From Escherichia coli (lineage in GTDB: Bacteria; Pseudomonadota; Gammaproteobacteria; Enterobacterales; Enterobacteriaceae), in NCBI RefSeq assembly GCF_003334255.1, contig NZ_QOWU01000149.1: a stretch of 1,796 bases of DNA. The stretch is one strand, 5' to 3'. The position numbers and the translations under genes are program-made. This document shows, in pieces, positions 1 through 1,796 of the stretch; position 1 is the first letter of the stretch, and each line of letters starts with the position of its first letter. Below the pieces are notes generated by a model. The model did no database searches. It saw only the letters and a program-made list of their open reading frames with translations, and was not told where the DNA came from.

Positions 1-74
1 TGTGTGAGTTCCGGCTGAATTTGTGGGGAGCGGAGTTTGCGGCGTTCTTACAGTGTAAGCAGTAGGAAAACCGC

Positions 75-121: not shown

Positions 122-523
122 ATGGCACCCGTTTCAGGTGAGAGAATGGACGACAGAATTCTCCGGTATATGCAGCGTGTTGTGAGAAATTCCCGCAACC
201 CTGAATTTATGAATGAAGTTAAAGACGCCTGCCTTAAAAAGCAGGCGTTTTGCTTTGAAGCGCCGGATGGTTTTCTGGTGCTGCGTTCTGTGCTCAGTGA
301 CGATGGTATCCCTTATGTTCTGGTGTTACTGGGCGTGTGTACGGGGAGTAAGAGTGTTGAGCGTTATCTGCCGGAGGTGAAGACATTAACCCGCCTGGCT
401 GGCGGACGCTGGGCCGAATTTCATACGGCAAGACGAGGATTTATCCGGCTGGGAAAACGTCTGGGCTTTGAGCGAATGCCGGATGATGAGGATGGCTTCA
501 TGGTGTTCAGGATAGCAGTCTGA
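122..523 (+). CDS. Hypothetical protein, 133 aa; C-terminal region has a weak GNAT-like 'KxLGFE' motif (unconfirmed)
   Basis: ORF with ATG at 122 and TGA at 521-523. An in-frame TGA at 107-109 means the start cannot lie further upstream. GAGG at 108-111 is 10 nt before the ATG; an alternative in-frame ATG at 146 is preceded by AGGTGA (136-141). The ORF is followed by an intrinsic terminator. Product unknown. Confidence 0.7.
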   Translation: MAPVSGERMDDRILRYMQRVVRNSRNPEFMNEVKDACLKKQAFCFEAPDGFLVLRSVLSDDGIPYVLVLLGVCTGSKSVERYLPEVKTLTRLAGGRWAEFHTARRGFIRLGKRLGFERMPDDEDGFMVFRIAV

Positions 524-575
524 CTGCCACTGTATTCATCATCGAGCGTAAACCCACATTGCAATTCACATTCTG

Positions 576-598
576 ACCCTGCTCCGGCAGGGTTTTTT
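576..598 (+). terminator. Rho-independent (intrinsic) terminator, + strand
   Basis: Stem CCCTGC (577-582) / GCAGGG (587-592) with 4-nt loop tccg, extendable by an A576:T593 pair, followed by a T6 run (593-598). It lies 54 nt after the stop of ORF 122-523. On the minus strand there is no U-tract after the stem, so it is unidirectional. Confidence 0.8.
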
Positions 599-605
599 GT
601 TATCT

Positions 606-611
606 GAGGAG
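606..611 (+). promoter_or_regulatory. Shine-Dalgarno (GAGGAG) for the 617-1273 CDS
   Basis: GAGGAG is 5 nt upstream of ATG 617. Confidence 0.75.
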
Positions 612-616
612 CCATT

Positions 617-1273
617 ATGGGCGGAAGTAAAGGTGGTGGTGATACCAAAGTAAAACCAACAGCAGCGCAAATAGCACAGGAAGAGGTGGCCTGGAAAGGG
701 TGGCAGGATTACAAAAATATTCTCCGTCCGGCAGAAGATAACTTCATGAAAAAGGTCGATGACCTTAACAGTGAGCAGCAGTACGAAAATATCGCAGGCA
801 CAACAAATCTTGGGTATCAGAAACAGTTTGGTGAAGCGCGAAGGGAGCTGGCGGGTAATCTTGCTCAGTCCGGCGTTGACCCATCCAGTGGTCGTTTTAA
901 TGCAGTAATGGATGCAAATCAAAGCGACCAGGTGATCGGGCAGATTGACACGACCACACGGGGGCAGGTATCGCAGGCAGATAAATATATTGCCGGGCTA
1001 CAGGATGTTGCGGCTCTCGGTTCCGGTCAGAAGGCAGATGCGTTACAGAGTTTTAACTCGCTGGCAGACAGCAGTCTGGCAAAAGCTAAATCGGACGCAC
1101 AGGCTGCGTTTACGAAACAGCAGGGGCGAGCCTCTCTTGTTGGCGCTGGTCTGGGTGCGGTTGGTGCATATGCGATGCATAAGGCTGGCGGTAGCGGAGG
1201 AAGTGGCGGTGCTAAAACACCTGGCACCGGCGCTAATGCCATTCAGCATCAGGCTCAGAACTGGAGACTGTGA
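617..1273 (+). CDS. Hypothetical low-complexity Gly/Ala/Gln/Ser-rich protein, 218 aa; candidate virion-associated (ejection, pilot or scaffold-like) protein, family not recognised
   Basis: Long ORF with a strong SD (GAGGAG, 5-nt spacer) and ATG start. The N-terminus is MGGSKGGG and the C-terminal region contains AGGSGGSGG. A hydrophobic Gly-zipper-like stretch ASLVGAGLGAVGAYAM maps to about 1130-1177. No cysteine. The stop TGA (1271-1273) lies 2 nt before the next start. Confidence 0.8.
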   Translation: MGGSKGGGDTKVKPTAAQIAQEEVAWKGWQDYKNILRPAEDNFMKKVDDLNSEQQYENIAGTTNLGYQKQFGEARRELAGNLAQSGVDPSSGRFNAVMDANQSDQVIGQIDTTTRGQVSQADKYIAGLQDVAALGSGQKADALQSFNSLADSSLAKAKSDAQAAFTKQQGRASLVGAGLGAVGAYAMHKAGGSGGSGGAKTPGTGANAIQHQAQNWRL

Positions 1274-1275
1274 TT

Positions 1276-1722
1276 ATGGAGTACGGTAAATACGAAACTC
1301 TCGCAAGGGCTGGTTATTCAGGAGCAGCCCGCCCACAGGGTGACTGGCAGACGTCAGCAGCGCTGACACGCCAACAATACGACGACTGGCGAACCAGATA
1401 TTTGCCCCGCGTGGCAAGGCTGGCTGACCTTGGCGAGAACAACAGCCTGATGAATGCGCAGCTTGCCCGGGTGGGCGGCCTTGCCACTTCCAGTCTCCGT
1501 ACAGCGCAGATGGCGCAGGATAACCAGATGGCACGATATGGCGTTAACCGACCTGATAATCCCAACAGTAATACGCTGGGGTTACGTAATGCCCTGGCAA
1601 TTGCTGGCGCGAAAAATGGTATCCGTGAAGCAGAGCAGGATCGTCAGATGAACATACTGACGGGGGCTTCTGCACCTGCAAGACAGCAACTGAGTGTTGG
1701 CGGACAACTGGTGTCAGCGTAA
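1276..1722 (+). CDS. Hypothetical protein, 148 aa from ATG 1276, Ala/Gln/Arg-rich and cysteine-free; translationally coupled to the upstream gene
   Basis: GGAG at 1263-1266 is 9 nt upstream of ATG 1276. The six-frame track starts at GTG 1270, but that leaves only a 3-nt spacer to the SD, so ATG 1276 is preferred. Stop TAA at 1720-1722. The upstream stop and this start form ...GTGATTATG..., typical of coupled genes. Confidence 0.75.
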   Translation: MEYGKYETLARAGYSGAARPQGDWQTSAALTRQQYDDWRTRYLPRVARLADLGENNSLMNAQLARVGGLATSSLRTAQMAQDNQMARYGVNRPDNPNSNTLGLRNALAIAGAKNGIREAEQDRQMNILTGASAPARQQLSVGGQLVSA

Positions 1723-1731
1723 GGAGGAAAT

Positions 1732-1796
1732 ATGGGATACGGTTTACTGGATATTGCGAATCAGTCACGGCGTGAGGCATTACAGGGAATAAGTGA
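1732..1796 (+). CDS. 5' end of a further hypothetical gene (first 21 codons, MGYGLLDIANQSRREALQGIS...), truncated by the window edge
   Basis: Strong SD AGGAGG (1722-1727) overlaps the upstream stop and is 4 nt before ATG 1732. The frame stays open to the end of the window. It is too short for the ORF track to list; the call rests on the RBS and operon context only. Confidence 0.5.
   Translation, partial: MGYGLLDIANQSRREALQGIS

Follow-up and report, generated by a model that had tools for sequence, protein, structure and literature searches.

Introduction

Phage ejection cassettes run from small through mid-sized to large proteins (PMC8954989). Proven ejection proteins include gp7, gp20 and gp16 of P22, gp14, gp15 and gp16 of T7, and gp52, gp51 and gp50 of N4, the last of which is a virion RNA polymerase (vRNAP) of 3500 aa. 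In P22, the N-terminal part of gp7 mediates procapsid incorporation/binding, and the first 20 residues of the protein are cut off by OpdA, leaving a mature start KGGKG. For the short-tailed phages that spread Shiga toxin (Stx) genes, only a giant protein has so far been proposed for ejection. Here we analyse three consecutive genes of this phage type, called g1, g2 and g3, which lie in a stretch of 1796 bases of Escherichia coli DNA (RefSeq assembly GCF_003334255.1, contig NZ_QOWU01000149.1), the whole of which is referred to as the window. From the letters alone, an earlier reading (the original prediction) had taken these genes for a candidate virion internal or ejection module, with scaffold proteins as one of its alternatives.

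The closest described systems are phages with the same genes. Mondal et al. 2016 (PMC5155283) deleted the late genes of Sp5 singly, among them ORF75 (133 aa), ORF76 (218 aa), ORF77 (148 aa), ORF78 (83 aa), ORF79 (421 aa) and ORF80 (2793 aa; ORF, open reading frame). Head and scaffold functions mapped to ORF61 and ORF65, the scaffold being ORF65. Deletion of ORF79 or ORF80, both essential and classed by these authors as ‘tail formation’ genes, gave particles that packaged DNA normally and were non-infectious. Without ORF76, lysogens failed to form under standard conditions and the phage showed ‘markedly reduced infectivity’, yet plaques and infection persisted. ORF77 and ORF78 were singly dispensable on K-12, with no clear defect, and ORF75 was non-essential. 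A 2026 preprint on phi24B (doi 10.64898/2026.04.10.717836) combines cryo-electron microscopy (cryo-EM) with virion proteomics and models most of the capsid, portal, adaptor, nozzle and fibre proteins, describing no ordered core stack. The giant protein gp47, being abundant and absent from the map and model, is proposed there as an ejection protein, and needle release is proposed to set off the exit of gp47 and the genome. The text of the preprint nowhere mentions gp48-gp52, and the 421-aa gp48 is labelled ‘Transcription factor?’. A proteome paper on phages of enterohaemorrhagic E. coli (PMC12502783) covers major structural proteins only.

The three genes are already known, belonging as they do to a heavily sequenced phage group in which they have been deleted and detected before, and their orthologues in Sp5, phi24B and 933W carry no published functional name. 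What is new in this work is the treatment of the small proteins and a further gene, orfA, as one conserved genome-delivery cassette, a weak link to gp7 of P22, and a cysteine-free marker. From the evidence below we infer that g1-g3 are probably genome-delivery proteins of 933W/Sp5/phi24B-type podophages, carried inside the head and ejected with the genome.

Results and Discussion

A conserved cassette behind the tail needle gene

At 99.8% identity the window matches Escherichia phage PhiR5_2, at 99.7% prophages of human commensal E. coli, and at 94-95% about 180 Stx-converting phages (many of them Stx2a); places covering at least 80% of it occur in 419 of 5426 complete E. coli genomes. It represents late genes of a prophage of the 933W/Sp5/phi24B type, in this case a non-Stx relative. 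Both complete products fall into phage families over their full length, g1 matching phrog_611 (expect value, E, 3.5e-119) and g2 phrog_596 (E 2e-83), and g3 does likewise with phrog_594 (E 1.7e-42). Gene by gene, g1 corresponds to Sp5 ORF76 (ECs1238), phi24B gp51 (vb_24B_44), 933W L0130 and PHROG 611; g2 to Sp5 ORF77 (ECs1239), phi24B gp50 (vb_24B_45) and PHROG 596; and g3 to Sp5 ORF78 (ECs1240), phi24B vb_24B_46 and PHROG 594. The phi24B products are 95.4% (g1), 96.6% (g2) and 91.6% (g3) identical to those of the window, and Sp5, phi24B and 933W have the same genes at 92-97% protein identity, with order and spacing alike and nothing substantive differing. Searches for g1 and g2 in Pfam gave nothing (the best for g1 being EcsC at E 0.11), and those in NCBIfam found no family for either; g3 has sub-threshold NCBIfam matches to Gly-zipper regions alone. 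Against the PDB, g1, g2, the 421-aa protein (g4) and the giant protein gave chance-level hits only, by sequence as well as by profile.

In annotated relatives, the order starts with genes for the terminase, portal, an N4-gp56-family capsid protein, adaptors, a tail fibre, a nozzle-like protein and the needle. After the needle come two small genes, Lom and Hok, then orfA, g1, g2, g3, the 421-aa gene and a 2793-aa LPD38/LPD5 gene (g5), and then the prophage end. These phage flanks support the original prediction. The products of g1-g5 measure, in order, 218, 148, 83, 421 and 2793 aa, with intergenic gaps of 2-68 nt. The genes g1-g3 encode the three small proteins of a conserved cassette orfA-g1-g2-g3-g4-g5, 3′ of the tail-needle gene. 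The original prediction had left out orfA, which is part of this conserved block.

The order nozzle-needle-(variable)-orfA-g1-g2-g3-g4-giant is kept in 87 loci and recurs in Salmonella-like phages, divergent IMG/VR prophages, Aeromonas phage phiARM81mr and Vibrio phages, at g1 identities of about 48-59% (IMG/VR) down to about 29% over the N-terminal 95 residues (Vibrio phages). In 84 loci, with the first ATG/GTG/TTG taken as start and starts thus possibly over-extended, g1 and g2 are spaced by -4 to 15 nt (one outlier at -20) and g2 and g3 by -4 to 12 nt (one outlier at -29). In 84 of the 87 loci, the next gene 5′ of g1 is an orfA homologue. The spacer between the two differs by lineage, measuring 91-94 nt in that of E. 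coli and 7-18 nt in many other lineages. Members of both families, g1 and g2, always labelled hypothetical, occur in Salmonella, Citrobacter, Yersinia, Pectobacterium, Dickeya and Aeromonas. Among 1.84 billion representatives, a profile search returned 951 g1-family clusters at E<=1e-3 and 436 at E<=1e-10, almost all of 185-250 aa and matching end to end. Since tblastn with two distant g1-family members matched only Stx-type, Aeromonas and Vibrio phages, there is no better-studied carrier among deposited phages.

The codon differences between the window and phi24B are mostly synonymous (36 synonymous and 10 non-synonymous in g1, 32 and 5 in g2). Together with the 951 clusters, the phi24B peptides described below and the conserved spacing, this makes g1 and g2 real genes and no chance open reading frames.

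The same synteny bears on a different view of g1-g3, as lysogenic-conversion or accessory cargo (‘morons’) like lom and hok, whose traces in virions would be contamination. It can draw on the adjoining lom and hok insertions, on a terminator-like hairpin 5′ of the genes, on the ‘bacteriocin’ label given to g3 in some (RefSeq) records, and on the phi24B preprint, where ‘a homolog of a bacteriocin’ (the 83-aa g3 homologue) is treated as a contaminant. However, lom and hok are missing in Aeromonas and Vibrio while orfA and g1-g5 keep their fixed order there, and a consensus scan of the window found no sigma-70-like promoter. A generic glycine-zipper match is all that lies behind the ‘bacteriocin’ label; such a motif says nothing for bacteriocin activity, and the label is a mis-annotation. 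In addition, the g1 homologue has its peak in one gel slice, with a batch count similar to that of the portal. This view seems highly improbable to us, and synteny conserved across hosts led us to reject it, with its bacteriocin variant.

Presence in virions

Homologues of g1 and g2, 95-97% identical to the proteins of the window, are present in purified virions, the measurement having been made in phi24B. The supplementary table of the phi24B preprint gives counts of peptide-spectrum matches (PSMs), in total and in the batch sample respectively, of 523 and 82 for gp51 (the g1 homologue, with 180 in its peak slice), 129 and 83 for gp50 (the g2 homologue), 13 and 6 for an 86-aa frame, 1634 and 179 for gp48, 10962 and 746 for the giant gp47, and 2226 and 101 for the portal; the coordinates in the table map onto vb_24B_44, 45 and 46. 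For gp51, the peptides extend from residue 12 to the C-terminal Leu and include that of the Gly-zipper; for gp50 they start at residue 12. Both proteins are therefore in the virion at full length, and the predicted starts are sound. Batch PSMs divided by length and scaled to 12 portal copies give, as a crude estimate, tens of copies each of gp51, gp50 and gp48. In the same phage, the 83-aa protein and gp48 (L005:4091-5618, vb_24B_46/47) are likely genuine cassette members, as synteny, composition and the essentiality of ORF79 suggest.

On these data the scaffold alternative of the original prediction is not supported, and we reject it: the homologues are found in mature virions, and the scaffold function of Sp5 belongs to ORF65. 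They also bear on whether g1-g3 could be flexible external accessory proteins of the tail or needle, with roles in receptor binding or tail completion and disordered in cryo-EM. The position of the genes downstream of those for the nozzle and needle would agree with this, as would the classing of the neighbouring ORF79 and ORF80 under tail formation and the unmodelled needle-tip density and flexible fibres of the phi24B preprint. That density, however, is tentatively given to gp54/gp55, which are different genes (ORF73/72), and gp50 and gp51, which by the crude normalisation are at or above the order of the portal, are too many for a needle-tip factor. Their composition is like that of ejection proteins and unlike that of the cysteine-containing tail proteins, and external receptor-binding proteins usually differ from host to host, while the conservation of g1-g3 reaches from E. 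coli as far as Vibrio. An external location is for these reasons improbable, and we keep to ejection from the head interior.

Deletion phenotypes

A profile of being needed for infectivity, and not for head assembly or packaging, fits ORF79 and ORF80 fully, and the ORF76 deletion shows reduced infectivity only. If the three small proteins are partly redundant, this could account for the mildness of the single-deletion phenotypes. The same phenotypes could also be read in another way, g1-g3 (and g4) being packaging adaptors or chaperones that recruit, fold-protect or tether the giant protein in the procapsid and have no role in a channel. In favour of this, the small genes are in every case encoded just 5′ of the giant gene, whose product virions contain in very large amounts; no small protein is essential by itself, where the giant protein and g4 are; and g1 resembles gp7 of P22 in the N-terminal part, which is the procapsid-incorporation region of gp7. 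On the other hand, neither cysteine avoidance nor Gly-zippers would be needed in a pure chaperone, orfA, which is absent from virions, is a better chaperone candidate, and the plaques still formed by the ORF76 deletion would be unlikely if the essential giant protein needed ORF76 for its packaging. We consider such an adaptor role unlikely, though hard to separate from ejection and conduit formation without mutant virion proteomics.

Composition and absence of cysteine

The original prediction had described the two complete products as cysteine-free, rich in Gly, Ala and Gln, and of low complexity. The first two features are borne out: g1 has 15.1% Ala, 13.8% Gly and 10.1% Gln (a summed share, GAQ, of 39.0%), g2 has 15.5%, 9.5% and 8.8% respectively (GAQ 34%), and neither has a cysteine. 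Low complexity, by 12-residue entropy, applies to residues ~148-205 of g1 (a Gly-zipper and GGSGGSGG), and not to the rest of g1 or to any part of g2. Beyond this, g1 is Gly-rich at its N-terminus and carries a Gly-zipper near its C-terminus (residues 172-190), with four long helices predicted, g2 is basic and helical, and g3 is a glycine-zipper protein with nine overlapping [GAS]xxxGxxx[GAS] hits and the C-terminal end GSLF. AlphaFold2 with family alignments gave all-helical models of g1 and g2, with predicted local distance difference test (pLDDT) scores of 47 and 45, at which matches to known folds would be meaningless.

The absence of cysteine extends over the whole of g1-g5 (0 in 3663 aa), against 42 in the 4215 aa of 17 neighbouring proteins (1.0%), and at the neighbours' rate the chance of such an absence is about 1e-16. 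Nor is there any in the cassettes of Aeromonas (4077 residues) and Vibrio (3928 residues), and counts over distinct homologues are 0 in 5649 residues for g2, 1 in 3714 for g3 and 2 in 26364 for g4, as compared with 376 in 31686 for the nozzle. The proven ejection proteins behave in the same manner, with no cysteine in the 1309 aa of P22 gp7/gp20/gp16, none in the 4294 aa of N4 gp52/gp51/gp50 (the 3500-aa vRNAP included) and one, at residue 2 of gp14, in the 2261 aa of T7 gp14/gp15/gp16, while the flanking portal, tail and assembly proteins of these phages do carry cysteine. (The cassettes compared are L002:14617-25709, which is g1-g5, L003:14992-29113, L004:15004-27854, L006 for T7, L007 for P22 and L088 for N4.) In size and GAQ, g1 and g4 (421 aa, 30.4%) each have a near twin in P22, namely gp7 (229 aa, 41.5%) and gp20 (471 aa, 34.4%) respectively. 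Cysteine is nowhere mentioned in the review of ejection proteins (PMC8954989) or in the paper on N4 (PMC12633501). We see in the cysteine-free signature class-level evidence for ejection proteins, short of proof, and the avoidance of cysteine would suit an unfolded passage through the oxidising periplasm.

Comparison with P22, T7 and N4

The likeness to P22 goes beyond composition. In both phages the needle gene is followed by a small cysteine-containing gene, a cysteine-free Gly/Ala/Gln-rich protein of ~220 aa, a protein of 420-470 aa and the largest protein, and an ordered core stack, a feature of T7, is seen in neither P22 nor phi24B. Among 48 profile-versus-sequence pairings with late proteins of T7 and P22, only that of g1 with P22 gp7 stood out, the others reaching at most 3%. 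Aligned by hhalign to the gp7 family, the g1 profile gave a probability of 41.6% (E 2.7e-4; g1 2-55 on gp7 22-75), with 1.0% for the reversed control. Because OpdA removes residues 1-20 of gp7, the Gly-rich start of g1 falls on the start of mature gp7. The g3 family, in turn, matched the last 19 residues of gp7 (probability 94.4%, E 9e-8; reversed control 7.9%), both proteins ending in GSLF. Features that P22 has in one protein, gp7, are thus spread here over g1 and g3. The differences are as clear: here there is an additional 148-aa protein (g2), the large protein has 2793 aa as opposed to 609 aa in P22, gp7 is required for DNA delivery whereas g1 is not strictly essential, and the likeness of g1 to gp7 is confined to ~50 N-terminal residues, at a probability of 21-42%.

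The N-termini of the g1 family are of interest in this respect. Some members (P0312, P0324, P0327, P0333, P0337, P0339, P0350 and P0351 among the extended or variant ones) have an N-terminal extension of 30-45 residues ending in an aromatic pair and then K-G-G, much like the propeptide that P22 gp7 loses ahead of KGGKG, P0306 and ten others start with MC, and the remaining ones have Gly, Ser, Cys or Ala as residue 2. Cysteine is rare in the family and nearly confined to residue 2 and the extension. A mature N-terminus that is conserved, exposed and rich in Gly, with putative processing, would fit these patterns.

With T7, the likeness is one of organisation and composition. The gp14-gp15-gp16 ejectosome (with the small ejected gp6.7 and gp7.3) and the present cassette are both operons of small, middle and large internal proteins, the T7 proteins are likewise cysteine-poor, helical and GAQ-rich (gp14 34%), and the 218 aa of g1 are within the 181-240 aa range of gp14-like proteins (PMC8954989). 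No profile similarity to these T7 proteins was found, the hhalign probability being below 1% (0.1% for g1 against gp14). The genes g1-g5 form a small-middle-large cluster as that review defines it (PMC8954989), with a parallel in gp52-gp51-gp50 of N4 (PMC12633501). In the N4/DEV cassette, gp52 has 150 aa, gp51 644 aa and the vRNAP gp50 3500 aa, and the capsid gene of the Stx-type phages is annotated as N4-gp56 family. In both, a giant cysteine-free protein comes last, preceded by small cysteine-free proteins, which have been shown to be membrane-active in N4 and are proposed to be so here. Four proteins precede the giant one here as opposed to two in N4, and the giant protein itself is here an LPD-domain polyvalent protein with a metallopeptidase domain, whereas N4 gp50 is an RNA polymerase. 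In size g2 (148 aa) is near N4 gp52, with no detectable sequence similarity. The hhalign pairings of g1-g4 and orfA with T7 gp7-gp17, the other P22 late proteins and N4 gp51-gp58 were negative, none of those with N4 exceeding 3% except g3 against the Gly-rich part of gp53 (18%).

A possible mechanism of genome delivery

Combining the above, g1-g3 would be made late from a Q-antiterminated late transcript, with coupled translation. By analogy with P22, T7 and N4, the products of the cassette would be built into the procapsid and be disordered within the head. After receptor binding, g1-g3 would exit via the portal and tail channel together with the 421-aa and giant polyvalent proteins, the needle-release trigger proposed for gp47 being extended to the small proteins. 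These may then insert into the envelope, with g3 and the C-terminus of g1 as candidate membrane segments, and together with the essential 421-aa and giant proteins they would build or prime a trans-envelope conduit for the DNA (and the giant protein). In this scheme g1 would most likely fill the role of the ~200-aa small ejection protein (gp7 of P22, gp14 of T7) and g3 would most likely be the source of the membrane-inserting glycine zipper; g2 has no assignable sub-role.

It is tempting to go further and suppose a split ejectosome of five components, in which a single job of the gp7/gp14 type is divided: g1 would bind the procapsid through its N-terminal module, g3 would enter the membrane by its Gly-zipper with the GSLF end, and g2 would add a further subunit, basic and helical, the whole cassette being specialised for the export of the cysteine-free 2793-aa polyvalent enzyme through the tail. 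Complete avoidance of cysteine, presumably caused by unfolded crossing of the oxidising periplasm, would then be a sequence-only marker of the ejected set in any Gram-negative podophage. Taken as a whole this is speculative, and we offer it tentatively.

Several observations pull against the candidate assignment of g1-g3 to the capsid interior and to ejection. The first concerns essentiality, as gp7, gp16 and gp20 of P22 are all required for DNA delivery and gp14, gp15 and gp16 of T7 are essential (PMC8954989), unlike g1, which is not strictly so, and g2 and g3, which can be deleted singly. The second concerns location, since the absence of gp50 and gp51 from the phi24B model is presumed from their not being discussed in the preprint, and a flexible external position would leave proteins equally unmodelled; also, the authors of that preprint considered the g3 homologue a contaminant. 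The third concerns homology: the link of g1 to gp7 is weak, a deeper g1 profile lowering its probability to 20.9% (reversed control 0.3%), and Pfam PF25688 (P22 gp7 ‘DNA transfer protein’), carried by all gp7 homologues, has no match to g1; the g3 match is just 19 residues long and lies in a motif of biased composition. The fourth concerns membrane segments. The gp14-like proteins have 4-5 predicted transmembrane helices (PMC8954989), as opposed to one weakly hydrophobic segment in g1, the single Gly-zipper, with a maximum Kyte-Doolittle hydrophobicity of 0.94; that of g3 is 1.69, and P22 gp7 and T7 gp14 both have 1.31. Finally, the absence of cysteine from a single protein of 148-218 aa is not significant (chance ~0.1-0.2 at 1% Cys), and models of such low pLDDT carry no evidence on the fold. 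In spite of these points, the phage flanks, the presence in phi24B virions, the ORF76 phenotype and the P22-, T7- and N4-like composition together uphold the virion internal or ejection module of the original prediction.

If so, the cassette bears on how the DNA of Stx phages crosses the envelope after BamA binding. Taken as one cassette, orfA and g1-g5 are a concrete gene set to test for entry, host range and superinfection exclusion, and a role is given to a large unannotated family (951 clusters for g1 alone). A cysteine-free block is held in four unrelated cassettes (Stx-type, P22, T7 and N4), and would, if general, be a cheap predictor of ejected proteins.

Gene structure, orfA and other features of the window

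On the + strand, the window holds a Hok/Gef gene end, orfA and the three genes g1-g3, the last of them cut by the window end (Table 1). The three consecutive + strand genes of the original prediction are exactly as it had them, with gaps of 2 nt (g1-g2) and 9 nt (g2-g3). The strong Shine-Dalgarno sites that it gave to all three hold for g1 and g3 and are overstated for g2, which has a GGAG core only; GTG at 1270 is an alternative start of g2. The tight spacing and the Shine-Dalgarno sites within the ends of the preceding genes suggest that translation of g1-g3 is coupled. Their expression is presumably by read-through of the late transcript, with lambdoid Q antitermination.

Table 1. Coordinates of the annotated features in the window.
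Feature	Coordinates	Strand	Basis or remark
Hok/Gef-family (MokW-like) toxin gene, 3′ end	1..65	+	End of coding sequence in a 99.7% identical prophage
orfA, 133 aa (Sp5 ORF75, PHROG 610)	122..523	+	Conserved partner 5′ of the module
Terminator-like GC hairpin (575-594) and T-run, orfA-g1 spacer	575..600	+	Consensus scan
Shine-Dalgarno site of g1, GAGGAG	606..611	+	From sequence; 5 nt 5′ of ATG
g1, 218 aa	617..1273 (ATG 617, TGA 1273)	+	Sequence, family matches
Shine-Dalgarno core of g2, GGAG	1263..1266	+	Inside the 3′ end of g1; 9 nt 5′ of ATG
g2, 148 aa	1276..1722 (ATG 1276, TAA 1722)	+	Sequence, family matches
Shine-Dalgarno site of g3, AAGGAGG	1721..1727	+	Overlaps the g2 stop codon
g3, first 65 nt (83 aa in full)	1732..1796 (ATG 1732, runs off the window)	+	Identical prophages

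The product of orfA differs from those of g1-g5 in having 3 Cys and a GAQ of 16%, and the phi24B virion proteome contains neither an entry nor a peptide for its homologue. Containing cysteine and not being found in virions, it may be an assembly helper. Its position parallels that of gene 14 of P22, which lies between the needle gene and gene 7, both products being small and cysteine-containing, and this position invites a comparison with P22 gp14 as an assembly helper for the ejection proteins.

The Hok/Gef gene has no counterpart in the Aeromonas and Vibrio versions of the locus and is an inserted accessory gene outside the g1-g3 module; the Lom and Hok genes are E. coli-lineage insertions between the needle genes and the cassette. 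A strong GC hairpin stands at 74-97, 3′ of the Hok/Gef gene end; it matched no Rfam family, the Rfam scan of the window giving nothing above noise. Among the distant relatives, Vibrio phage D80 has an opposite-strand HNH endonuclease gene between its g3 and g4 homologues (L004:16224-17015), the only interruption of the cassette seen, and the tail block of Aeromonas phage phiARM81mr (L003:6876-8509) holds a retron-type reverse transcriptase and a 23S-rRNA-intervening-sequence protein.

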